The position numbers and the translations under genes are program-made. Shown here one piece after another: positions 11,978 to 33,049 of a stretch of 37,185 nucleotides of DNA; position 1 is the stretch's first letter; each line of letters opens with the position of its first letter. The stretch is from Candidatus Sungiibacteriota bacterium (GTDB lineage: Bacteria; Patescibacteriota; Minisyncoccia; Sungbacterales; SURF-37). The stretch lies in contig JACPMF010000019.1 of the NCBI GenBank assembly GCA_016186145.1, positions 1 to 37,185 on the forward strand. Direction: 5' to 3'. The notes below the pieces were generated by a model, which worked only from the letters and a program-made list of their open reading frames with translations, searched no databases and had not been told where the DNA came from.

Positions 11978-13345
11978 TTAAATAATGCGCTCTATGCGGC
12001 TTGCAATAGAGATTATTGCGCTCGCATATGCCCGGCAGCTGTAAGAACTGCAGCTCGGTCGGCCGGAAAGATACGTTTTTGCGGCGCGAATTTCCCCCGC
12101 CTCGGTCCTTGCGGCCGCACCGGACTCCGCAAGAAAAAGAGCAGATGCCGTAAACGCATCTTCAATATTCCACGGGTTCGCCGGATTATGCCCTGTGATG
12201 CGGGCCACCTTTTCTTCGAAAAGAAGCCATGTCGTCGGAATAAATTGCGCGGGCCCCATTGCCCCTCCCCAACCGTAACCGCACGGCTTTCCCGGACCGA
12301 TCCGCTCTCGCACCGACTTGGCGCAGGGGCGGGCGGAAACCGGCATTTTATCGGGATCTAAATTTAACTTATTCGTTATTGCTAAAAAGGCCGCGTGCTG
12401 GTTTGGCTTCATATCGGCTCTCCAACTACCGGTGCCAAGGTTCGTTCCTACAGTCACCTCTTCACCCTCAAACCTCCTCCCGGTTTCCACCTCAAGAAGC
12501 GCTAAAAGAAATGCGGGACGGATTCCCGTGCGCTCTGCCGCAAGTGATGCAAACCGCACCGCATCTTCGGCAGTCACGCCCGTACGCTCAAGATAGAAAA
12601 GTTGGGTTTTCAGACCGCTAATATCAAGTTTTTTTGCGGAAAGAAGGTTCTGGAAAATACTTTCTTTCCCTTTGGTAATTTGAAGAAGACGATCCTTTTC
12701 TACGCGTTGAAGCTCCATGTTTCTTTTCTCAATCTCTAAAAGCGCCTTCAGCGATTCTTGCTCGCTCCGAAACTCTTCCAGTTCTTCTTTTTCCTGTTCA
12801 AGCTGAACTCGAGAAGCGCGGAGGTCTTCAACAAGATCCCGAGCATTTGCTTGCAAAGCGCGTATTGTGTCGACAACCCTGAAAAACGAGGAGATACTCG
12901 CATTCTTAGCAAGAACAACAACAAGATTCTCTTGGTCATACGCATAAAGACGGCGGATATTATTTGCAAGAATTTGCCGATTCCGCTCTACGCCACGAAT
13001 CGTTTCTTCAACCTTGACCGCCTTTGTCGCAATATCAACGCCAGCTTGGCGAATCGCCAGACCCAGCCGCCTCTGCTCAAGCTCTCGCTTTTTGATTTCA
13101 CTATTAAAAATGCTGACTTCCCGACTCAACGTTGTTGACTCCTTCTTTGTCTCTTGGAGACGCGTATCAATTTCAGCCGCCTCCCGTTCCAGTGCTTCAA
13201 TTTGCGCCTGAAGAGACTGCTTTTTTTCTTCATCGGGACTTGCCGCATTTGCCGCCGGAAGCATTGCCAACAAGACAAAAAACAAAACAGCGGATAGGGT
13301 CTCCGCCAAAAAAAATAATTTTCTCAAGGGCCGGCTGTTCTTCAT
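11978..13345 (-). CDS. Secreted coiled-coil lytic murein transglycosylase (MltB/Slt35-like C-terminus)
   Basis: Signal peptide, long coiled coil, LEVET catalytic Glu, GGAMGPAQFIPTTW. Confidence 0.85.
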   Translation of the reverse strand: MKNSRPLRKLFFLAETLSAVLFFVLLAMLPAANAASPDEEKKQSLQAQIEALEREAAEIDTRLQETKKESTTLSREVSIFNSEIKKRELEQRRLGLAIRQAGVDIATKAVKVEETIRGVERNRQILANNIRRLYAYDQENLVVVLAKNASISSFFRVVDTIRALQANARDLVEDLRASRVQLEQEKEELEEFRSEQESLKALLEIEKRNMELQRVEKDRLLQITKGKESIFQNLLSAKKLDISGLKTQLFYLERTGVTAEDAVRFASLAAERTGIRPAFLLALLEVETGRRFEGEEVTVGTNLGTGSWRADMKPNQHAAFLAITNKLNLDPDKMPVSARPCAKSVRERIGPGKPCGYGWGGAMGPAQFIPTTWLLFEEKVARITGHNPANPWNIEDAFTASALFLAESGAAARTEAGEIRAAKTYLSGRPSCSSYSCRAYASAIISIASRIERII

Positions 13346-13366: not shown

Positions 13367-13437
13367 ATCCCCACACCTTCCCGATTTTGGTGTTGGGACA
13401 AGAGACCGCGGGGTATTCGAGAAGGTGCGGGGATAAA
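13367..13437. repeat. Family A-related palindromic element
   Basis: ATCCCCACACCTTC.CGA ... TCGAGAAGGTGCGGGGATAAA. Confidence 0.55.
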
Positions 13438-13466: not shown

Positions 13467-14141
13467 TTATACTGCTTTTTCAGACTCGGCTTTTGCCGCA
13501 GCCTTCGCAGCGCGCTCTTCCGTCTTTGTTTCCTGTTCGGTCTTAACCTCCACAACTTCCGCTGCCGGCACTACCGCAAGATCCTCTTCCGCGCGCGGCG
13601 CCTCAATAATAACAACTACGTCATCAAGATCCTCACGCACCATAACTCCAGTCGGTATGACAATATCTTTTACCTGAATCCTGTTGCCTACTTTTTCAAG
13701 CGCACCGACAGATACGGCAATTTCTCGGGGCAGATTTTTCGGCAATGCCCGCACTTCAATTTCTTGCATAACCTTCACCAGGATTCCTCCCTCATTTTTA
13801 ACCGCAGGCGGTTCGCCCGAAAAAACAAGAGGAATCTTTGCGTCGATCTCTTTGTCCATGCGAACCGAATGGAAATCTGCGTGCACCGGCTTCCCGGTCA
13901 GCGGCTCGTATGCGATATCCTGGATCATAACATTTAACGGTTTGGCGCCGTCAACAACCAGAGTCACTAACCCGGTCTCCCCCGCTGACTGATACACCTT
14001 TTCAAAGTCACGCGCGGAAACGGTGACCGATTGCGAATCAACCTCTTCTCCGTATACCACCGCAGGCAAAAAACCGGCCCTGCGAAGGGCTTTTGTTTTC
14101 TTCCCTAATTCAATCCTCGATTTGGCGTTCAATTCAAACAT
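13467..14141 (-). CDS. rplY: 50S ribosomal protein L25 / Ctc
   Basis: ALRRAGFLPAVVYG, PVHADF, VKNEGG, LPKNLPREI. Confidence 0.95.
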   Translation of the reverse strand: MFELNAKSRIELGKKTKALRRAGFLPAVVYGEEVDSQSVTVSARDFEKVYQSAGETGLVTLVVDGAKPLNVMIQDIAYEPLTGKPVHADFHSVRMDKEIDAKIPLVFSGEPPAVKNEGGILVKVMQEIEVRALPKNLPREIAVSVGALEKVGNRIQVKDIVIPTGVMVREDLDDVVVIIEAPRAEEDLAVVPAAEVVEVKTEQETKTEERAAKAAAKAESEKAV

Positions 14142-17635: not shown

Positions 17636-18664
17636 CTACTTCCGTGTTACAACTCTTTTTGCCGCCGCCACGATGTGCTTCACTCCCATCCCGAAGTGAT
17701 CAACAAGCTCATTGGGTAAACCCGACTCGCCAAACCGATTCTGCACACCGATGAATTCCATAGGGACCGGATAATTTTTCACAAGCACCTCGGCAACGGC
17801 TGAACCCATTCCTCCGGATACTTGATGTTCCTCAACAGTTACAACAGAACCCGCGTCTTTGGCCGATTGAATAATTGTTTCCTCATCCATCGGTTTTATC
17901 GAAACCGCATTGAGAACCCGAACGGTGACCCCCTCTTTTTCCAACTCTGCCGCGGCAAGAATTGCGTTGTGCAAAAGCGGTCCGCAGGCAATAATCGCCA
18001 CGTCTGGTTTTGCTTGCCCCGAGCCGCCTATCGAGGGGCGCCCCGGCTCCATCCAAAAAACTTGCGCCTTGCCGATTTCAAACGGCGTCTCCTCTGTTGT
18101 AAAAACTGGTGTTTTCTCGCGAGCAAAACGCGCATAACATGGCCCGTAAACTTTTGAAATCGCATAAGTTATTTTTTTTGCTTCATGCGCGTCACAAGGG
18201 GCAAAAACTCTCATGTTAGGAATAGGACGCGTAATTGCGATATCCTCTATGGCCTGGTGAGTCGCTCCGTCCGGCCCTACTGAAACGCCCGCGTGAGAAC
18301 CTATAATTTTCACGTTCGCGTCGTTATAGCAAATAGTTGTTCTCATCTGCTCCCAATTTCGGCCGGGGCTAAACATGGCATAAGAAGTAATGTAAGGGAT
18401 TTTGCCCACCAATGACATCCCTGCCGCGACCGATGCCATATTCTGCTCGGCCACCCCCATTTCCACAAACCGCTCGGGGTATTTTTTAGCAAACGCCTCT
18501 GTCCGTGTTGATTCTGTTAAGTCTGCGCAAAGCGCTGCCACATCTGGGTTTTCATCCCCTGCCTGAACCAAACCTAAACCGTAGCCGTCTCTAGTGGGTT
18601 TTTGTTCCAATGACTTCAAATCTAGAATTTTTTCTACAAGTTTTGCTTTTGGATTGACTGGCAT
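17636..18664 (-). CDS. tkt: Transketolase, C-terminal subunit
   Basis: MGVAEQNM, GPDGATHQAIED, VEEHQVSGGMG. Confidence 0.94.
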   Translation of the reverse strand: MPVNPKAKLVEKILDLKSLEQKPTRDGYGLGLVQAGDENPDVAALCADLTESTRTEAFAKKYPERFVEMGVAEQNMASVAAGMSLVGKIPYITSYAMFSPGRNWEQMRTTICYNDANVKIIGSHAGVSVGPDGATHQAIEDIAITRPIPNMRVFAPCDAHEAKKITYAISKVYGPCYARFAREKTPVFTTEETPFEIGKAQVFWMEPGRPSIGGSGQAKPDVAIIACGPLLHNAILAAAELEKEGVTVRVLNAVSIKPMDEETIIQSAKDAGSVVTVEEHQVSGGMGSAVAEVLVKNYPVPMEFIGVQNRFGESGLPNELVDHFGMGVKHIVAAAKRVVTRK

Positions 18665-18665
18665 A

Positions 18666-18953
18666 CCCGCCTAAGTTTTTGCATTAAAGTAGTTATAAAG
18701 CGTCCTTTGGATGTACTGACGGCCCCACCCTGTTTTGAAAAACCGTTCTCTATTCTCTGCACCTTCTCGATTTGGAAAAGCTTCATAGTAAATAAGCTTA
18801 AGTGGAATTCTTGTCTTTGTAGCAAATGAAAGTCCTTTGTTGTGCATGGAAATGCGCTTTTTCAAATCGTTTGTACAACCAATATACATCTTAGCATCTT
18901 TTTGGCTTCTCAAAATGTAGACATATGAAAACATATGCAAAAATTTAGGCGGG
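18666..18953. mobile_element. 288-bp inverted-repeat-bounded element carrying only a GIY-YIG gene
   Basis: CCCGCCTAAGTTTTTGCAT (18666-18684) and ATGCAAAAATTTAGGCGGG (18935-18953), 18/19; GGCATAC direct repeat at 18660-18666 and 18952-18958. Confidence 0.75.
18671..18934 (-). CDS. Small GIY-YIG nuclease (YhbQ/UPF0213-like)
   Basis: YVYIL...MYIGCT.DLKKR...HN.G...TK.R.P.KLIYYE...A..RE...K. Confidence 0.92.
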   Translation of the reverse strand: MFSYVYILRSQKDAKMYIGCTNDLKKRISMHNKGLSFATKTRIPLKLIYYEAFPNREGAENRERFFKTGWGRQYIQRTLYNYFNAKT

Positions 18954-19009
18954 CATACTTAAATACTTATTCCGACCGGGGCAAAAACCCGGTCGTGAAA
19001 ATATTCAAA

Positions 19010-19276
19010 TTATTTTTGCGTCCCGTCCATTCCGCTGCATGTTCCGCATCCGCACCAACCGTGTTTACTGCGAACCCCCATAGCAAGAACCCCACCGACA
19101 AGCGCTGTCCAGTACCACGTCATATAAGAAACAGCATAAAATTCGCCCCCTCTCCATAATGCAAGAAGCCCTCCCATAAAAGAAAGAAGTGAAGCAATCC
19201 AAATAATTTTTCCGAGTATGGACCTCCAACAACATCTCCAATGCATTTTATAATGCTGCATATTGTTATCTATCAT
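19010..19276 (-). CDS. Small two-TM hypothetical protein with Cys-rich tail
   Basis: Hydrophobic ORF in the operon direction; start uncertain. Confidence 0.6.
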   Translation of the reverse strand: MIDNNMQHYKMHWRCCWRSILGKIIWIASLLSFMGGLLALWRGGEFYAVSYMTWYWTALVGGVLAMGVRSKHGWCGCGTCSGMDGTQK

Positions 19277-19312: not shown

Positions 19313-20173
19313 TTATTGATGCTCACCTTTAATTTTCCCCCCAAGCGTACGAAGTTGACGAAGCGACTCCGTTACCTCTTCTGGCTTAAACGTTTTTGAA
19401 TGCCACGGGTATTGAAATTCCATAAAATCAACCCCTTTGCCGGCAACGGTATGAGCAATAATAAGAACCGGTTTTTCATAAATGGCGTGGGCGGTTTCAT
19501 ATGCATTCACGATTTCTTCAAAATTATGCCCGTTGATTTCCAAAACATGCCAGTTAAATGCTTCATATTTTTGGCGAAGCGGTTCAAGCGGCATTATGTC
19601 TTCGGTCATGCCGTCAATCTGAATGTTGTTACGGTCTATAAGCGCCGTGAGATTGTCCAATTTCAATTTTCCGGCAAGCATAGCCGCCTCCCACGTCTGG
19701 CCGGCTTCCTGCTCTCCGTCAGACATCAAGCAATAGATGTTAAAAGATTTTTTATCCATTTTTGCGGCAATTGCCATACCAACAGCTTGAGAAAGCCCGG
19801 AACCAAGAGGCCCGGAAGTAGTTTCAACTCCTGGTAACGCAGTCCGATGCGGGTGGCCTTGCAATCTGGTTCCGAACTTGCGAAGTGTTTTTAATTCCTC
19901 AACCGGAAAATAGCCGGCCCTTGCCATGGCCGCATAGCGTACGGGACAAATGTGTCCGTTCGAAAGCACAAGACGGTCGCGTTCCGGCCAATCGGGGTTT
20001 TTAGAATCATGTTTTAGAACATGAAAGTAGAGAGCAGTGAAAATATCGGCCATATCAAGAGGGCCAGCTACATGTCCGGAACCGGCATTTACCACCATTT
20101 CAATGACATCCTGGCGAATGGTATTGGCCGTCTCCTCCAAAAATTTAATCTTGTCCTCGTGTAAATGACTCAT
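19313..20173 (-). CDS. tkt: Transketolase, N-terminal (TPP-binding) subunit
   Basis: GSGHVAG, RDRLVLSNGH, LQGHP, SDGEQEAGQTWEA...DRN. Confidence 0.95.
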   Translation of the reverse strand: MSHLHEDKIKFLEETANTIRQDVIEMVVNAGSGHVAGPLDMADIFTALYFHVLKHDSKNPDWPERDRLVLSNGHICPVRYAAMARAGYFPVEELKTLRKFGTRLQGHPHRTALPGVETTSGPLGSGLSQAVGMAIAAKMDKKSFNIYCLMSDGEQEAGQTWEAAMLAGKLKLDNLTALIDRNNIQIDGMTEDIMPLEPLRQKYEAFNWHVLEINGHNFEEIVNAYETAHAIYEKPVLIIAHTVAGKGVDFMEFQYPWHSKTFKPEEVTESLRQLRTLGGKIKGEHQ

Positions 20174-25730: not shown

Positions 25731-25894
25731 CCCCGTACCAAATCTTTTGTATACTGGCGTACCCTACTTTCCCAGGAAGCCATGCTTCCAAGTATCATCG
25801 GGCTCAAATGCTTTCACTTCTCTGTTCGGAATGGGAAGAGGTGGGGCACATTTGAGTAAAACACCAGTAAACAGAAAATTTGGTACGGGGCAAG
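25731..25894. mobile_element. Family A element carrying an intact 5S gene
   Basis: CCCCGTACCAAAT...ATTTGGTACGGGGCAAG; removal restores CACTTCTCTGT|TCGGAATG with no target duplication. Confidence 0.7.
25752..25869 (-). rRNA. rrf: Inner intact 5S rRNA gene
   Basis: 118 nt; contains CCCAUUCCGAAC, GAUGAUAC and GGGAAAGUAGG; closing helix UACUGGU/GCCAGUA. Confidence 0.9.
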
Positions 25895-26193
25895 TCGGAA
25901 TGTTCCCGTTTTGTCTGCGAGCCGTAAGCGAACAGTTACAAAACGCGATCCCTTACTCAGCTTGCTGAGTATGGGAGGAAGAGGTGGGGCACCTATGGAT
26001 TAAACACCGGCAAATAAAATTTTTGATGGTTTTACCTAAAACCCATCTTAAAAATGCATTTGGAAAGTGTACTTTGAGCGGGGAGTAAAAATGATCTGTT
26101 AGTACCTCTCGGCTAAAACGCTTGCGCGCCTTACACCTAAGGCCTATCGACGTGATAATCTCTCACGGATCTATGATACCTAATCTTGGGGTG

Positions 26194-26226
<33 letters not shown>

Positions 26227-26368
26227 CTTCCGAACATAGCTACCCAGCGATGCTCCTGGCGGAACAGCTGGTAGACCAGAGGTTCGTTCATCCCGGTCCT
26301 CTCGTACTAAGGACAACTCCCCTCAAGTATCGACGCCTGCAGTAGATAGGAGACCAACCTGTCTCACG

Positions 26369-27083
26369 CTTGTTTGCTTTGCAAACCGCGGAACTACGCT
26401 GACTTCACGCAGACCTACGCAGAAAAATTCCGCGTTTGCCCGCATCCGATCTGCGACCGTCCGCGATGCTTAAGCATATCCTCTGTTACCAGAGGGATTG
26501 GACTATACCACTATCCTAGCCACTAGGGTTTAGCCACTAGCGATTAGGACAACCGACATGTTAGCAATTCATTATATGAATTACTCTGCCGCTTTCACGA
26601 CAAGTCTCTACGGGGTTAGCTTTCCAAAATACTTATTAAGTGCTTTATCATCCTTTTAGCTCTTTCTCGCTCATCTTCAGACAAATTCTTTACCACTCCT
26701 CCGAGTCGGCTTAAGAGATTTGCCACCTCTACAAACTCTTTGGATGCTTCCTTATCTTCTCCAGAGTTAAATGGTTCTTTCTCCATAAAATTATTCCTTA
26801 ATAATTATACCAACTAACTTCCCTCGGTATTATCCTACTAAACCCAGATTGGTTAATCAATTTCCGCGTCAATCCGCGTTGCCATCCGCGTATATCCGCG
26901 TGTTTTGACTTCAGTCAAAACAATAGGACTCCACCGATATGAGTCGGTTTATTCGATCCCGCTTACGCGGGAAAGCCGCCGTGCTTGCCCCGTACCGAGC
27001 TTTACTCTGGTGCGGGGTGTTTAACAAGTTCCTATCTAAAACTTGCTAAAAGATTTCGATGTCAATTTCAGGCTCTTTTTTTG
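26369..27083 (-). ncRNA. Group I intron at L2593
   Basis: Follows exon U and ends in G; core motifs UAUCGGUGGA, AAUACCGAGGGAAG, CCCCGUAGAGACU, GGUAUAGUCC; IGS GCGGCUU and P10 CACG. Confidence 0.9.
26616..26786 (-). CDS. 56-aa intron-encoded hypothetical protein (not a homing endonuclease)
   Basis: MEKEPFNSGEDKEASKEFVEVANLLSRLGGVVKNLSEDERERAKRMIKHLISILES; upstream TATAAT and AAGGA; below the ORF-track cutoff. Confidence 0.6.
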   Translation of the reverse strand: MEKEPFNSGEDKEASKEFVEVANLLSRLGGVVKNLSEDERERAKRMIKHLISILES

Positions 27084-27092
27084 ACGGTTTGA

Positions 27093-27931
27093 CACTTATA
27101 TTACGATTACTCGTAAAGTAGACTATACCTTTATTCAATCTCCGCAGACTGAATACCGACGTCTTATACAACAAGACTTGCTTCTTGTATCTGACCCAAC
27201 ACTGATTGGATCAAGTCGTTACGGGGATTACAAATCTTATGGGTCATTGATGGAATTATAAATGGTTCAATAATATTGTTGAACTTTTGATACTCATGCC
27301 TTCCGATTCTTATCTTGAACCTTGCTCTGTCTTTGATTATCGTTGCGGAAATCTTGAATCTCCGCGCTAGAAATTCAACAATTCGTTCTTGGTCTTGAAG
27401 CAAGAAATTATGAGTACTTATGGTGTACGAAGCTTTCGTATTTGAACCATCGTCCATAAACCATATTGCGATTGCTCTCGGAATCAAATAATCAAACAAA
27501 TCTTGAGGAAATATTTTAACCGCATCCTTATAGAAATAATGATACAGTGCTCCAAGTTCTTTGAGTGTTTTGGTGTGGAAGTACCACGAATAATGATCTT
27601 TGTTTCGCTTGGCATCATGCCAAACTTTGATTCTTCGCGGCTCCTTTAACACCAGATTCTCAAGTTGAGCATATTTCCAGAAGACGTATTCTTTCTGTTT
27701 CTCACTTTGATGAATTCGCAATCGTGCGCTTATGGGATATCGTTTTCCAACTGAACGGCACTCAAGACGAGCATCGCCCAACAATGATCCTATAATCACA
27801 TCAACTTGATGTGACGGAAATAACGATTGTAATCTTCCCACGGTATGGTCCATACAATTTTATTGTATCATAAATTTGCATGGATTCCACCGTTATGAGT
27901 CGGTTTAATCTGGGCTCAGTAGTTTTCACTA
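27093..27931 (-). ncRNA. Group I intron at L2584
   Basis: P1: exon CUGGGU pairs with GCCCAG (U-G at the splice site); terminal G; core CCCCGUAACGACU and GGUAUAGUC. Confidence 0.88.
27164..27853 (-). CDS. LAGLIDADG homing endonuclease (double motif, LAGLIDADG_2-like)
   Basis: IIGSLLGDA and IAIWFMDDGS motifs; inside the L2584 intron. Confidence 0.92.
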   Translation of the reverse strand: MDHTVGRLQSLFPSHQVDVIIGSLLGDARLECRSVGKRYPISARLRIHQSEKQKEYVFWKYAQLENLVLKEPRRIKVWHDAKRNKDHYSWYFHTKTLKELGALYHYFYKDAVKIFPQDLFDYLIPRAIAIWFMDDGSNTKASYTISTHNFLLQDQERIVEFLARRFKISATIIKDRARFKIRIGRHEYQKFNNIIEPFIIPSMTHKICNPRNDLIQSVLGQIQEASLVV

Positions 27932-28015
27932 ACCCAGCTCGCGTATCTTTTTAAATGGCGAACAGCCATACGCTTGGGAGCTTCTTCACCCCCGCGCTAA
28001 GATGAGCCGACATCG

Positions 28016-28845
28016 CTGTCGTTATTTGTCTTCCGTTACCGGAAGGATCGGACTATATCTTCATCCCACCTTTAATGGGAGTTGGCGTTTTAGCTCTCCA
28101 TGTTCTGGAGAACTCCGGTCAACTTCTGACCAAGTCTCTACGGGGTCATAACTCAATTTATACTTCATCGAAGGAATAATATGTTCAGAAATTAATTGAT
28201 TAAATTTCTTAATACTTTCCTTCAAAAATCTTAGTCGATAATAGGATTTATCTTTATTTATGGTCGTTTCCAAACCCAAAACTTTTAACATTCCCATCAA
28301 TTTTTCTTGATCGGAATGGCTGAACTGTTGGGTATTAAGATAAACATCTCTATCGCGGCATCTGCTTCCGTCATCCATAAACCACACAGCAAGTGAAATT
28401 GGACCGAGTTGAATATCTGGTATTCGTTTCTTTCCGCCCTCATAGAATAATTCATGCATTCGCGATAATTCTGGATGCTGCTGTGTATAGAAACGATATG
28501 CTATCCGATGCCCATTTCCATACCGTGATTTTGGAATTCCGCCCGCAATATTTTTGAGTACAGAATATTTCCAATCAACGTACTCTTTTGCTCTTATGGA
28601 ATGGTTTATCTCGAGAAAAGCATCTTTACGCCCTTTTAGTTTGCGCAAATAGCCGTCTCCTAAGAGTGTTCCTATTATCAGAGATTTTTGTAATTGAGTT
28701 AGACTTCCCACGGTATTGTCCATATTAGGTATTTTACCATATGGAGTCCACCGTTATAAGCCAATATTTTATTCGAATTTCCGCTCCTAACGGATTGATT
28801 CGAACGGCTAATGCCGTTGCTGGCATGGCGCCCCGATGTTGTTTG
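28016..28845 (-). ncRNA. Group I intron at L2500
   Basis: Splits GGCACCU|CGAUGUCGG; terminal G; P10 CAUCG; core CCCCGUAGAGACU and AAGAUAUAGUCC. Confidence 0.92.
28061..28723 (-). CDS. LAGLIDADG homing endonuclease (double motif, LAGLIDADG_2-like)
   Basis: IIGTLLGDG and LAVWFMDDGS motifs; inside the L2500 intron. Confidence 0.93.
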   Translation of the reverse strand: MDNTVGSLTQLQKSLIIGTLLGDGYLRKLKGRKDAFLEINHSIRAKEYVDWKYSVLKNIAGGIPKSRYGNGHRIAYRFYTQQHPELSRMHELFYEGGKKRIPDIQLGPISLAVWFMDDGSRCRDRDVYLNTQQFSHSDQEKLMGMLKVLGLETTINKDKSYYRLRFLKESIKKFNQLISEHIIPSMKYKLSYDPVETWSEVDRSSPEHGELKRQLPLKVG

Positions 28846-28885
28846 AGGTGCCGAACTGCGCCGTCGCTGTGGACGCTTGGGCGCA

Positions 28886-28921
<36 letters not shown>

Positions 28922-29136
28922 AATCTTTGGCCTTGTTCTAGCAAGTACCATCGGTTCACTAAGTTCTGCTTTCGCACCTGCTCGGCATGTCCGCCTCGCA
29001 GTCAAGCCGGCTTTTCCCTTTACGGGTCCGACGCGGTTTCCATTCGCGCTAAGCCGACCTTTAAACTCCTCCATTACTCTTTAGGAGGAAAATGCCCCAT
29101 TCAAACTGCCCACCAGACACTGTCTCAGTTGGGTTT

Positions 29137-29228
29137 CACCACGAAGCCCGCAATAATGCAAATCTACGAATGCATCAGAATGCTACGAATAATTTATTCG
29201 CAATTCGCATTTTGTGAACACTGTGGTG
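29137..29228 (-). other. Hairpin insertion in 23S helix 79 region (G-type repeats)
   Basis: CACCAC...GTGGTG stem enclosing TACGAAT/ATTCGCA units. Confidence 0.7.
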
Positions 29229-29506
29229 TTCCCAACTGGTTAGAATACAAGTTTTCACAGAATGGTATTTCACTGACGGCTCCGTCCCATCCGAAAACAG
29301 GACCTCAACGCCTCCCATCTATGCTACGCAGTAAAAACTTATACCCAATATCAAGCTACAGTAAAGCTCCCGGGGTCTTTTCGTCTAACTGCAGGTAACC
29401 TGCATCTTCACAGGTACTGTATTTTCACCGGGCTCCTCCTTGAGACAGTCCCCCGATCGTTACGCCATTCGTGCGCTTCGGAACTTACCCGAAAAGGAAT
29501 TGCGCT

Positions 29507-29830
29507 CAACTTTGTTACAAGAATCTAAAAACTAAAAAGTAGAATCTAGAATCTGGACGAGACATTTCTGCTCGCCTCTGCATATTACTATGCAGTTCGG
29601 ACTATATCTTCCGAGTACACTTAAACTCGGTTCGGCGTGTAGTCTCTACGGGGTCCCTCGATAAACTCGGGACTTCCCTCGGTATTGTCCAAAATCCTGT
29701 CTGAAATTTTGGATGTTCACCGATATAGCTCCGCCGTCGCCTTACGGCTATGGACGGATCCTTGATTTTGTAACTCCTCGATAAACTCGGAGACAAAATC
29801 GGGACAAATTTTACTAAGGCAAATCAATTC
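29507..29830 (-). ncRNA. ORF-less group I intron at L1931
   Basis: Splits CUAAGGU|AGCG; P1 with GCCUUAG; terminal G; core CCCCGUAGAGACU and AAGAUAUAGUCC. Confidence 0.92.
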
Positions 29831-30038
29831 ACCTTAGAACGATTATAGTTATCGCTGACATTGACGAGGGCTTAACATCTCACGCAATAAAAAATTGATG
29901 TAATCTCATTCCCATCACAAAAATGTTTGACCTTCTCGCATCGGTCAGGCGTCACCTCCTATACATCCTCTTACGAGTTAGCAGGAGGCTGTGTTTTTGG
30001 TAAACAGTCGCCAGGGGTTCTTTTGTTGCAGGCGCGCG

Positions 30039-30130
30039 CCCCGCACGCTCATCAGCGAATTACGAATCAGATACGAATATACGAATTCGTAATATTCGCA
30101 AGAGCTTCGCTATTCGTTGATAGCGTGCGA
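30039..30130 (-). other. Hairpin insertion in 23S helix 63 (family G element 30051-30121)
   Basis: CGCACGCT...AGCGTGCG stem with ATCAGCGAATTACGAAT...ATTCGTTGAT. Confidence 0.72.
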
Positions 30131-30676
30131 AGCACGCGTCAAGCCTTATCGCGAACTTACGGCTGCTTTTTTGCCTAGTTCCTTAAGGAGGACTCACCCG
30201 TTCGCCTTGGTGCACTTACACCAACCCACCTGTGTCGGTTTTCGGTACGGTCACCCAGCGGATAATCTTAGAAGCTTTTCTTGGAGGCCTGCTTTACCGA
30301 ATTTCGTCCCGCAAAACGGAACGATTTTCGCTCTGCTTGAGGCCGGGCATAACCCCCGCTGCCGGATTTGCCTGGCAGCGCCCCTTACAGCCCGAACGCA
30401 AATCCAATAATGCGCCCGGCATACTAAACCCCGTCACTCCATCGATCCGCTGGATGGTGCTGGAATATTAACCAGCTGTCCATCGACTTCGGCTTTCGCC
30501 ATTGCCTTAGGCCCGACTAACCCTTGGATGATTGTCATTGCCAAGGAAACCTTGGGTTTACGGCGTGCCGGACTTTCACCGGCATTGTGGTTACTTGTGC
30601 CAACATTCTCTCTTCCCTACGCTCCAATTCCCCTCGCGGGTGAATCTTCACTGCATAGGAAATGCTCTCCTACCGC

Positions 30677-30820
30677 ATCGCTCCTCGCTACTGCTCGGTC
30701 GCTTAATATAATGCGAATCTACGAATATATGCGAATGCTACGAATGTTGTATTCGCGGTATTCGCATACCAATTCGCATTATTCGCATTATGAAAGCTCC
30801 GAACAAAAGTGAGGAGCGAT
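30677..30820 (-). other. IVS-like insertion in 23S helix 45
   Basis: ATCGCTCCTC...GAGGAGCGAT stem with GCGAAT/ATTCGC repeats, at the classic IVS helix. Confidence 0.75.
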
Positions 30821-31458
30821 ACCCGCAACTTCGGTACTTTGCTTAGCCCCGATAAATTTTTAGCGCAGGGACTCTAGACGAGTGAGCTGTTACGCACTCT
30901 TTAAAGGATGGCTGCTTCTAAGCCAACCTCCTCGATGTCTGAGAATCCCCACCACCTTTAACACTGAGCAAAGATTTAGGGACCTTAGTTTGCGATCAAC
31001 GGCTGTTTCCGTTGCGCACGACGGAGCTTAGCCCCCGCCTGCTGACTGCCGGAATAACTCGCTTGCGCATTCGGAGTTTGATTGGTCAAGGCGAGTTTCC
31101 CCGCTCTTGACCATCCAGTAGCTCTACCTCGCAGCGCGCATGATCCGACGCTAGTCCAAAAACTATTTCGGAGAGAACCAGCTATTTCCAGGTTCGATTA
31201 GCTTTTCACTCCTTACCACAGGTCATCCGAAGGCGTTGCACGACCAACCGGTTCGGGCCTCCCCCGCGGTTTTAACCGGGGTTCACCCTGCCCATGGCAA
31301 GCTCACCTGGTTTCGGGTCTTTTGGATTCTACCTAAAGACATTAGACAATAGGTGCTAGATTTTAAAACATAAAATAAGAAGCAAAAAACTTTACAAAAT
31401 CTTTAACTACCTGCAGACTAAACCCAATCTGGTTCTTTTCCCAAACGGAGGAATATAT

Positions 31459-31563
31459 ATGCTAGTTACAATGCTAATCATTATCAGCGGCGTTCTTTTA
31501 GCCTGCATAGTATTTTTATTTCTTATTATCAAAGGTATCGTTGGAATCTTGATTGAACGATAA
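31459..31563 (+). CDS. 34-aa single-TM hydrophobic peptide antisense to the 23S
   Basis: MLVTMLIIISGVLLACIVFLFLIIKGIVGILIER; GGAGG at 31447-31451; TTTACA-17-CAGACT at 31391-31419. Confidence 0.65.
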   Translation: MLVTMLIIISGVLLACIVFLFLIIKGIVGILIER

Positions 31564-31571
31564 CTTTTACC

Positions 31572-31593
31572 AACAGGCCTATGGCCTGTTTTT
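31572..31593 (+). terminator. Intrinsic terminator of the antisense peptide gene
   Basis: AACAGGCC-TAT-GGCCTGTTTTT, 8 nt after the stop. Confidence 0.7.
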
Positions 31594-31802
31594 ATGTTCT
31601 AAAATCTAACACCTAAAATCTAAGGTCTTAAGCGCGCTATTCACACTTGGTTTCCCTTTGCCTCGGTGCCGTAAGCACCTAGACGAGTAGAATTCAAAAA
31701 CTCGTTGGCTCATTCTTCAATAGGCACCTGGTCACCCTTGCGGGCTCCCAGTCCTTGTAAGCGTATGGTTTCAGGTACTATTTCATCGCCCTCATCGGGC
31801 TG

Positions 31803-31841
<39 letters not shown>

Positions 31842-32028
31842 GTTCCGTTAGTATTTAGCCTTAGGAGACTAGTTCTCCCTGCTTCCCGCGCAGTCTCCAT
31901 ACGGCGCGGTACTCAAGAATAATTCAGAGAGCATAAGACCGTTTTCGCGTACAGGACTATTACCTTCTTTGGTGCGCCTTTCCAGGCGTCTTCTGCTAAC
32001 GAAGCCTTAATTTTTATACTCTCCCCGA

Positions 32029-32147
32029 TTGCTCCCTCCTCCGCTCCTCGCTGCGCTCGGAGCTGTGGAGGGCGAGACTCATTGCAAAAGATACTATTGC
32101 AATACTCGCCCTCCGAAGCTCTTGCGAAGCAAAGAGCGAAGGGGGGC
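32029..32147 (-). other. Multi-hairpin insertion in 23S helix 16-18 region
   Basis: GGAGGGCGAG...CTCGCCCTCC stem with GCTC/GAGC side hairpins. Confidence 0.6.
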
Positions 32148-32248
32148 TCGGACGAACTACTCTTACAACTGCAATTTAAATCACTTGATAAATCAAGAAA
32201 TAAAATTGCTCTGGGCTATTCCCTTTTCGCTCGCCGCTACTAAGGGAA

Positions 32249-32363
32249 TGCGCTCCGCACATTCATCAACGAATTACGAATTTTGTACGAATTTACGAAT
32301 AAACAAACTTGTAAATTCGCATATTCGCAGTAGATTCGTTATTCGTTGATAAAAGGCGAAGCC
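32249..32363 (-). other. Insertion near 23S position 220 (family G element 32265-32350)
   Basis: Lies between CTACTAAGGGAAT and TTTCTTTTCCTCC landmarks; near-copy of 6429-6515. Confidence 0.78.
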
Positions 32364-32414
32364 TTTCTTTCTTTTCCTCCGCTTACTGAGATGTTTCACT
32401 TCAGCGGGTATCGC

Positions 32415-32545
32415 GAGCGCTGCTTACGCAGCTAAACTAAAAATGAAAAACTTAAAATTAAAATTTAAGGAATCGTGAAAATTTTTCGCCCACCATTTTT
32501 AATTTTTCATTTTAAACTTTTAACTTAGCTGAGAAAGCAGCGCTC
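32415..32545 (-). other. AT-rich hairpin insertion in 23S helix 9-10 region
   Basis: GAGCGCTGCTT...AAGCAGCGCTC stem with TAAAATT-type 7-mers. Confidence 0.7.
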
Positions 32546-32818
32546 ATCGCTGATTTCTCAGCGATGGGTTTCCCCATTCGGAAATCGCCGGATCAAAGGT
32601 TGCTTGACACCTCCCCGACGCTTATCGCAGTCACGCCACGCCCTTCATCGCCTACGGAACCCTAGGCATCCACCATACGCCCTTATTATTACTCCCCGCC
32701 CAAAACACACTTTGTTTTGAACGGTTTTATTTTTAGGTTACCTGTATTAAATTTTCAAACTGCTTACCTTACCAACCATCGTCTACTCCCAAAAACAGAC
32801 GACGACCGATAAGAATTT

Positions 32819-33049
32819 ACCCCAGCACCAATTTTGCGATAAACTCCAACGCAAAGCGCTTCGCCCATAACGGGATGTGCCTATTTCTGCGGGGTTTCCT
32901 GCTGCGGGTGCGGCTCCGCCGCATCCTCGCAAAACCCGTGAAAAGCTATTTAAACGCTTTTCACCACACGCGCTTCGCTATAAACTTAAATAGCATTTTA
33001 TCTTAACAACGCGTTATTTCTTGCAGCGGCAAAATTGGTGCGGGGTTCA
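32819..33049. mobile_element. Family A element in the rRNA leader
   Basis: ACCCCAGCACCAATTTTGC...GCAAAATTGGTGCGGGGTTCA; shares GCGCTTCGCCCATAACGGG with 1777-1933. Confidence 0.75.

Follow-up and report, generated by a model that had tools for sequence, protein, structure and literature searches.

How can a foreign gene come to lie upon the very start codon of a host gene and leave that gene readable? The question is raised by a stretch of 37,185 nucleotides from Candidatus Sungiibacteriota (GenBank assembly GCA_016186145.1, contig JACPMF010000019.1; the window below means this whole stretch), which forms contig C14 of a genome (G000) that measures 980 kb and is 99% complete. On its minus strand, at the start of tktC, the gene for the C-terminal half of transketolase, lies a unit of 288 bp, measured from arm to arm (292 bp with one TATG), in which a gene for a GIY-YIG nuclease is enclosed by inverted repeats. 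Judged by its sequence, this unit is one copy of a large and hardly described family of very small mobile elements in the ultra-small, groundwater-dwelling bacteria of the candidate phyla radiation (CPR)/Patescibacteria, and there is little doubt that it is a real mobile insertion. The explanation as a whole, in which a 288-bp member of this family inserts at TATG, is expressed by coupling to the host operon and is driven by nuclease cutting of its own hairpin, is rather probable; on its most demanding part, that the nuclease is what moves the element, the case is evenly balanced. The features from which the argument starts are as follows, in the orientation of the element.

18954..18957, minus strand: upstream copy of the TATG target, read in the sequence; the ATG at 18954-18956 was once the start codon of tktC.
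18935..18953, minus strand: left arm, CCCGCCTAAATTTTTGCAT, found by repeat finder and core count; it includes the TAA of a mini-ORF.
18671..18934, minus strand: GIY-YIG nuclease gene, 87 codons and TAG (Pfam PF01541, E 4.2e-15).
18666..18684, minus strand: right arm, ATGCAAAAACTTAGGCGGG, which contains the final codons and the TAG (18671-18673) of the nuclease gene.
18662..18665, minus strand: downstream TATG copy; its ATG (18662-18664) is the working tktC start.
17636..18664, minus strand: tktC, transketolase C-terminal half, an intact host gene (Pfam Transket_pyr and Transketolase_C).

The repeat finder places arms at 18663-18684 and 18935-18956, 22 nt long, 91% complementary and with 250 nt between them, and the 19-nt arms proper pair with one mismatch as terminal inverted repeats. 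Only two copies of the 19-nt core CCCGCCTAARTTTTTGCAT exist in the window, one on each strand, where 0.05 would be expected by chance; a chance origin of the pair was ruled out, at least two matches appearing in 0 of 100 shuffles. An earlier note, made from the letters of the window, had described an 87-codon GIY-YIG open reading frame (ORF) between 19-nt inverted repeats, its ATG abutting one and its TAG inside the other, and the coordinates agree: the ATG (18932-18934) adjoins the left arm without a gap. The note's reading of the two junctions can likewise be followed directly in the sequence. The old tktC ATG now heads a three-codon mini-ORF, ATG CCC GCC TAA (18945-18956), whose TAA lies within the left arm and is followed after 10 nt by the nuclease ATG, while 5 nt beyond the nuclease TAG the downstream copy reads ATG CCA GTC, the conserved MPVNP start of tktC that is common to all 28 relatives in which this start is in view. 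Both neighbouring genes thus stay intact after insertion, because the old ATG opens the mini-ORF and the new ATG starts tktC. The one part of this description that did not stand is the length of the duplication. GTATGCC is indeed present at both ends, but 59 other elements with the same arms point to a 4-bp TATG; the extra G is the terminal G of the arm, and the extra CC belongs to the conserved second codon of tktC, CCN in the 28 relatives. Comparison shows an insertion at the TATG holding the tktC start codon, with 4 bp duplicated.

The mobile character of the unit, which the earlier note had proposed, is supported by comparison, through unrelated loci with the same arms, element-free sites, patchy distribution and the TATG duplication. 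The closest homologues in contigs representing one genome per species are 60-73% identical and come from Uhrbacteria, Yanofskybacteria and other Patescibacteria (L041-L045). All five share the arms of the window copy, and past the right arm come (T)ATG and a gene that differs from case to case, one of them S19-like; the left flank is TATG in L041 and L044 and a near-match, TACG, in L042 (three of the five). Two copies from relatives, L055 (67%) and L056 (66%), carry these arms as well; when an empty site for L055 was sought, the protein downstream of it was not found in the five same-genus genomes searched. An exact-match scan of metagenome contigs with an 18-nt arm returned 111 stretches, so that the question whether the CCCGCCTAA...TTTTTGCA ends recur at unrelated loci, posed by the earlier note, is answered by L041-L045, L055, L056 and these 111. 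Eighty of the stretches were analysed (L084-L163): both arms lay within 340 nt in 54 and one arm was present in 26, and removal of duplicates reduced the 54 pairs to 52 unique elements.

These 52 elements define the target. TATG stands on the right flank in 31 of them, and in all 31 its ATG opens an ORF, as compared with 28% of all 6285 TATG sites in the genome under the same test, which used an ORF proxy rather than called gene starts. The flanking tetranucleotides are identical in 25 of the 52, against 1 in 256 for unrelated flanks, 24 of these pairs being TATG on both sides and one TCAA. A control with mismatched pairs gave 0.27, and therefore much of the identity reflects a common preference for TATG. 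Genuine duplication also occurs at other words, since one element (L127) is flanked by TCAA on both sides and another (L110) by ATTGA on both sides, a duplication of 5 nt.

The same collection reveals that most bearers of these arms lack the gene. Only five of the 52 are full length with a GIY-YIG gene (62-73% identical to the window copy), and 47 are gene-less, 36 measuring 81-210 nt and 11 at most 80 nt, which makes gene-less copies about nine times commoner than full ones in this arm subfamily. That the miniatures are plain internal deletions of the full element was rejected, the arms alone matching full copies. Among the bearers of such arms, two enclose a tRNA gene. In one metagenome contig (L114, about 297-418) an arm pair of the window type brackets a tRNA-Val(tac). 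In the genome itself, the sole other arm pair of the window subfamily (C8:130986-131093; L010 1412-1519) is a unit of 108 nt that contains a complete tRNA-Val(cac) as called by ARAGORN; it sits, by eye, in the anticodon region of another tRNA, for which outer gene ARAGORN makes no call. Hairpin shells may carry tRNA genes as cargo.

Sister copies with other arms repeat the same architecture. The genome holds seven GIY-YIG paralogues, 37-51% identical to the window copy and one with an internal TGA, of which six are bracketed by inverted repeats of their own in elements of 258-297 bp; bracketing repeats were not found around the copy on C22. The arms of the paralogues all differ in sequence, and most start (T)CCC and finish GGG(A). 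On C23, two copies are flanked by ATGAA at both ends, with the ATG of the next gene rebuilt, and the paralogue on C8 is flanked by two versions of a uvrB-like gene end. Among 61 related genomes, 48 have GIY matches, the number per genome ranging from 0 to 12, with internal stops in several. When 42 homologous loci were examined, namely 6 paralogues of this genome, 6 of 13 close-homologue loci and 30 loci of relatives (one of the 30 being the window's own copy), bracketing repeats were found in 31, with element sizes of 275-313 bp. In each of the 31 elements parsed, hardly a base separates the gene from its arms: the ATG comes directly after the left arm, and the stop falls within or just beyond the right arm in 30 of them. 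An ORF on the same strand starts -1 to +3 nt from the right arm in 14 of the 31; two further such starts (L059, L063) were discarded as GTG artefacts. The family anatomy can thus be given as inverted arms of 13-21 nt, beginning CCC and ending GGG, with one GIY-YIG gene of 85-95 codons inside.

Is the site itself empty in relatives? Upstream of the element lie two host features, and the spacer between the first of them and the upstream TATG is 53 nt.

19010..19276, minus strand: ORF of 88 amino acids, family-less, host context outside the element, between the transketolase halves.
19313..20173, minus strand: tktN, transketolase N-terminal half, host context (Pfam Transketolase_N, E 3.8e-64).

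The tktC gene was found in 48 of the 61 related genomes, and in the 30 best-matching relatives it is 68-85% identical over its full length. These 30 loci were compared, the start being in view in 28 and the upstream DNA being short in a few, for example 113 nt in L017. Element-free junctions are seen in L019, where the tktN stop overlaps the tktC ATG, and in L024, where ten bases separate the two. By tblastn, 25 of the 28 have no GIY gene in the available DNA upstream of tktC, and the three that do (L023, L034, L036) carry cassettes of another arm subfamily (CCCTCCCAAC...) at a different insertion point: a ghost of tktC codons 1-29 runs into the left arm, the cassette lies behind this ghost, and the working tktC starts 23 nt beyond the right arm. 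The empty site that the earlier note had proposed to seek in relatives is thus in evidence. The opposite picture, which the note had named as fatal to its proposal, homologues without flanking repeats and a gene syntenic before tktC throughout the clade, is not what was found, given the 31 bracketed loci of 42 and three tktC-adjacent genes that belong to a different subfamily. The GIY gene is, on this comparison, no syntenic resident of the position upstream of tktC. The 88-aa ORF, in which no Pfam or NCBIfam match was found, has homologues upstream of tktC in about eight relatives (L013, L014, L016, L018, L023, L031, L035 and, weakly, others), and it is therefore older than the element.

The ghosts extend beyond the three cassette-bearing relatives. 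Copies of the first 25-67 tktC codons stand upstream of the working gene in L012, L025 and L026 as well as in L023, L034 and L036, and those in L012, L025 and L026 come without a GIY gene. In L013 (relative G024), a gene-less hairpin of the CCCCCACACC type was noticed by eye about 90 nt upstream of tktC; it occupies the position taken in the window by the GIY element. The 5' end of tktC is accordingly a recurrent target in this order, struck repeatedly and in different ways.

The arms are the part of the element that has been kept. Against nine copies with the same arms, they are identical at 15-18 of 19 positions, while third codon positions of the ORF are 26-46% identical (an ungapped comparison from which L045 and L055 were dropped for a register shift and in which L107 was unparsed). 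The arms are thus under selection, having been kept while the third positions diverged. Folded as single-stranded DNA, the element has a minimum-energy structure closed by its arms (z-score -3.26, equalled by 0 of 100 shuffles). Stem position 10 is non-Watson-Crick in 43 of the 52 elements, with A.C in 22 and G.T in 21, the remainder being A.T (8) and G.C (1); the window copy has A.C. Through this conserved mismatch the nuclease may be able to tell one strand, or one end, from the other.

The earlier note had also put the element forward as a candidate driver of the palindrome families. For the family this holds, the arm of the C2 paralogue having 72 matches in the genome, other paralogues having many cognate gene-less pairs, and CCC...GGG repeat pairs numbering 105 in the genome against 6-13 in three controls, a count that includes non-elements such as the terminal helix of 5S rRNA (25731-25890) and a pair beside the 23S 5' end. 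For the window copy, with its one gene-less pair, the proposal fares poorly. The window contains two gene-less units of related appearance. One, at 1058-1212, is 155 nt long, has 14-nt CCC.../...GGG inverted repeats with nested hairpins, and begins 2 nt past the stop of an ORF ending at 1055. The other, at 13369-13432, is a 64-nt CCCCACACCTTC.../...GAAGGTGCGGGG hairpin between the minus-strand genes 13467-14141 and 11978-13345, and its arms resemble the CCCCCACACC subfamily, which accompanies GIY genes in L079 and L082.

What kind of enzyme does the element encode? The ORF between the arms matches the GIY-YIG domain with 56.3 bits against a cut-off of 22.6, and PF01541, with the overlapping T5orf172, is all that Pfam finds in the 87-aa protein; NCBIfam gave no match above cut-off and PHROGs no family. 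The AlphaFold2 model is one compact domain with a predicted local distance difference test score of 95.9. In a profile search of solved structures the best matches were the UPF0213 proteins BH0048 (1zg2, E 4.5e-14) and EF2693 (E 5.1e-12), followed by SLX1 (E 2.9e-06), whereas I-TevI (1mk0/1ln0) matched weakly (profile E 0.0073, Foldseek E 0.26). Foldseek ranks 1-13 are occupied by UPF0213, SLX1 and HIGLE, the TM-score to SLX1 nuclease domains being 0.65-0.68 at 2.1-2.8 A in most chains; PDB entries of the best SLX1/UPF0213 group are 1zg2, 1ywl, 7cq2-4, 6seh and 4xlg. An alignment of 64 sequences shows no variation at Y6, Y17, G19, H31, L47, E63 and K67 and almost none at R27 and E51, positions that we take to form the GIY-YIG catalytic set. 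Conservation of the catalytic Tyr, Arg, His and Glu makes it likely that the nuclease is active. Sequence profiles and the model together make it a predicted minimal nuclease of the UPF0213/SLX1 type, in which the catalytic domain fills the protein and a DNA-binding domain of the homing-enzyme kind is absent by both Pfam and model.

Proteins of this kind are numerous. A search of 1.84 billion protein representatives, clustered at 50% identity, returned 7174 clusters with E <= 0.001, of which 811 reach E <= 1e-10, and most of the best 150 representatives listed are 80-130 aa long. Some homologues are long, such as P0003, P0006 and P0011, with 214, 655 and 2448 aa and two to nine matched stretches; either GIY domains may be repeated in tandem or fused in them, or a gene call may have spanned several elements. 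SLX1 and the UPF0213 (YhbQ-like) proteins, for all that they are the best sequence-profile and fold matches, differ from the nuclease in being cellular repair proteins without known associated repeats or mobility, and SLX1 adds a zinc finger and a partner, SLX4. The titles of 6seh and 7cq4 describe SLX1 as cutting branched DNA, such as flaps and junctions, and the foot of an extruded hairpin would, by analogy, be a branched substrate of the SLX1 type.

Expression of the gene is probably borrowed. The nuclease is probably transcribed with the host operon, because no promoter-like site was found inside the element. Its translation probably depends on re-initiation downstream of the captured start codon, and that of tktC on re-initiation downstream of the nuclease. 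In L003, L068 and L080, which belong to the ATGA subfamily, the nuclease shares its reading frame with the captured ATG; in this subfamily the TGA of the nuclease also overlaps the ATG that comes next. If the element depends in this way on the operon transcript and on coupled or re-initiated translation, expression of the host gene would be maintained too.

A pathway by which such an element might move can be proposed. The arms would pair, either within a single strand to give a hairpin or in a cruciform, and the element's own structure-specific nuclease would cut the foot of the stem beside TATG. Cuts staggered by 4 nt would open the target TATG, leaving it to the host's polymerase and ligase to complete the joining; the nuclease would also act in trans on the many gene-less arm pairs. 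The generic features of an insertion sequence are present, namely terminal inverted repeats, a short target duplication, occurrence at unrelated loci and empty sites in relatives. The sole ORF of the element is that of the GIY-YIG nuclease, and it encodes no transposase of the DDE, HUH, serine or tyrosine recombinase class. Nor did the 99%-complete genome contain a match to Y1_Tnp (PF01797), rve (PF00665), DDE_Tnp_1 (PF01609) or the TnpB type (PF07282), a search for which the PF01797 control was positive in 6 of 14 named genomes.

Set against known small elements, the unit shares something with each and departs from each. Elements of the IS200/IS605 family make no target duplication and have subterminal hairpins, and their TnpA forms a covalent tyrosine intermediate. 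The present element is like them in being tiny, with hairpin-forming ends, a specific tetranucleotide beside one end and no DDE enzyme, but its inverted repeats are terminal and span the element, its target is duplicated, and a GIY-YIG enzyme forms no covalent tyrosine intermediate. The REP/REPIN-RAYT systems similarly have a nuclease gene bracketed by cognate palindromes, many gene-less intergenic copies and hairpins as the presumed substrate. Their enzyme, however, is HUH Y1 where this one is GIY-YIG, PF01797 having no match in the genome; several divergent nuclease/arm pairs coexist in one genome here; and the closest relatives of the window element lie in other phylum-level lineages, with a 4-bp duplication at start codons. 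The gene-less arm pairs of 37-200 nt with short target duplications resemble miniature inverted-repeat transposable elements such as the Correia elements of Neisseria, except that the enzyme of their presumed parent is a GIY-YIG nuclease and not a DDE transposase, and that docking is on start codons.

The nearest described parallel is the Ssn family (Chenal et al. 2025, Nat Commun 16:2388; PMC11893778). According to the available text of that paper, Ssn are single-domain GIY-YIG nucleases that cut single-stranded DNA beside hairpin repeats (NTS/SRM) flanking their genes, and its authors liken the repeat-gene-repeat layout to an insertion sequence, possibly domesticated. The likeness extends to size (about 90-100 aa, as against 87 aa here), to hairpin-forming flanks and to many gene-less copies of the repeat. 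Membership of Ssn is tied to the CDD clade cd10448 (GIY-YIG_unchar_3); the solved proteins nearest to the present nuclease are UPF0213 BH0048 and EF2693 and SLX1. The differences are that in Ssn, as the available text presents it, each flank carries a full hairpin, whereas here each flank carries one arm and the gene lies in the loop, and that nothing on mobility, on a duplicated target or on docking at start codons appears in the text available; the terms Patescibacteria, candidate and CPR are absent from the paper. The published SRM motif is not enriched in the genome (4 matches, against 0-7 in ten controls). It is missing within 300 nt of the window's GIY gene and beside six of the seven GIY genes, one match lying near the seventh, and it has two matches in 154,857 bases of related loci. 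By analogy, the element would work like an Ssn/hairpin pair, though it is not classed as a member of Ssn. A full-text literature search gave no account of GIY-YIG-only transposons or of start-codon docking in CPR, PMC11893778 being the only relevant paper; PMC12455944, in its available text, names GIY-YIG genes among those transferred from Patescibacteria.

Several observations weigh against an element that is mobile by its own nuclease. The cassettes of L023, L034 and L036 come with about 30 duplicated tktC codons, and to judge by their sequence such ghost-bearing cassettes look like the product of recombination-based spread, not of cut-and-paste. TATG is on neither flank in 21 of the 52 elements and on the right flank only in 7. 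The same arms enclose other cargo, tRNA-Val in L114 and on C8 and unrelated sequence in most miniatures, and therefore the GIY gene could be a passenger. Nothing in the sequence points to recent activity of the window copy, because its nearest relatives are only 73% identical in protein and the genome has one other arm pair. No empty allele at the exact site was found in the four groundwater metagenome runs (one study) that contain the window, the runs being represented as contigs, which lose rare variants, and three of them possibly being the window's own source. The only joints at arms in those runs have the arms separated by 24 other letters, and their flanks are different; this is a miniature that belongs to some other locus or organism. 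To our knowledge GIY-YIG enzymes are hydrolytic, with no strand-transfer activity, and a transposon with a nuclease alone needs host repair at every step. In light of these points two alternatives keep real weight, and a third does not.

The first is that the arm pair, a hairpin shell, is the mobile unit and is moved by some host or foreign enzyme encoded elsewhere, the GIY gene being cargo with another role, for example cutting incoming single-stranded DNA like the Ssn of Neisseria. Both parts of this alternative are unlikely yet deserve to be taken seriously. It would explain why 47 of the 52 elements with the same arms are gene-less, with interiors unrelated to the GIY gene, and why two shells enclose tRNA-Val; moreover, Ssn nucleases have a demonstrated cellular role in limiting transformation (PMC11893778, available text). 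It sits uneasily with the lack of any Y1, rve, DDE_Tnp_1 or TnpB-type transposase match in the 99%-complete genome, with the faithfulness of every GIY subfamily to its own arm sequence across phylum-level lineages, and with the near base-exact fit of the gene between the arms in the 31 parsed elements.

The second, somewhat less likely again, makes the nuclease a free-standing GIY-YIG homing endonuclease that cuts alleles lacking the element, for instance once DNA has been taken up, and spreads into them through recombinational repair; that the repeats would then be incidental or regulatory is equally doubtful. GIY-YIG homing endonucleases such as I-TevI and Seg do share the GIY-YIG catalytic domain and a selfish habit with the element, and related cassettes carry a copy of a host gene end: a duplicated ghost of tktC codons 1-30 accompanies the GIY cassette in L023, L034 and L036, ghosts are found without a GIY gene in L012, L025 and L026, the C8 paralogue lies between two copies of a uvrB-like gene end, and the tktC 5' end has been struck by two different subfamilies. 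The window copy, however, has 4 bp in common with its target and no host-gene segment, and copies with the same arms precede many unrelated genes that have TATG alone in common. Its 87-aa protein lacks the DNA-binding domain that gives homing enzymes long target sites, and short duplications exist beyond TATG (TCAA, ATTGA).

That the gene is a vertically inherited repair nuclease, its repeat an RNA stem that regulates or stabilises the transcript and nothing mobile about it, is highly improbable, for although UPF0213-type proteins are common as single genes across many bacteria and the arms would pair in mRNA too, copy number varies from 0 to 12 among the 61 relatives, some copies are pseudogenes, the site is element-free in relatives, unrelated loci carry the same arms, which also form pairs that lack the gene, and TATG duplications are seen at the flanks.

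A mobile element driven by its own nuclease, if that is what this unit is, would represent a new mode of transposition, in which a hydrolytic structure-specific nuclease and host repair suffice within less than 300 bp. It would also account for much of the hairpin repeat content of streamlined Patescibacteria genomes and for repeats lying exactly at gene junctions. There is a fair chance of a new transposon class. The stronger formulation, that these are autonomous transposons of a class outside current schemes, about 290 bp long, with an 87-aa SLX1-like nuclease that recognises its own extruded hairpin, inserting at TATG with a 4-bp duplication and borrowing and returning a start codon, falls somewhat short of an even prospect. 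Were it true, this would be the smallest self-contained DNA transposon known and the source of the abundant hairpin miniatures of CPR, tRNA-carrying shells included. Docking on a start codon and rebuilding it lets a parasite live in the operons of a genome with almost no spare DNA. In practical terms, nature may offer here a large library of small nucleases (7174 clusters), each paired with its own hairpin, and it was this pairing that drew interest to Ssn as a source of tools for single-stranded DNA. Genome annotation is affected too, since insertions of this kind give rise to spurious N-terminal extensions and to ghost gene ends, which gene callers will misread.

The ribosomal RNA region of the window holds further insertions and repeats. 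At 32821-33045, just upstream of the 23S 5' end, is a 225-nt pair of 17-nt CCC.../...GGGG repeats, which could be an rRNA processing stem and not an element. Within 26092-32695 (minus strand), the 23S rRNA gene itself has an end-to-end model match over 3955 nt against a model length of 2925, with a group I intron match at 29578-29840. A second piece of the 23S 3' end (model 2655-2912) lies at 26092-26333, and between the 23S pieces stand two LAGLIDADG_2 ORFs, 27164-27853 (E 4e-37) and 28061-28723 (E 1.7e-40); the gene is interrupted by several insertions.

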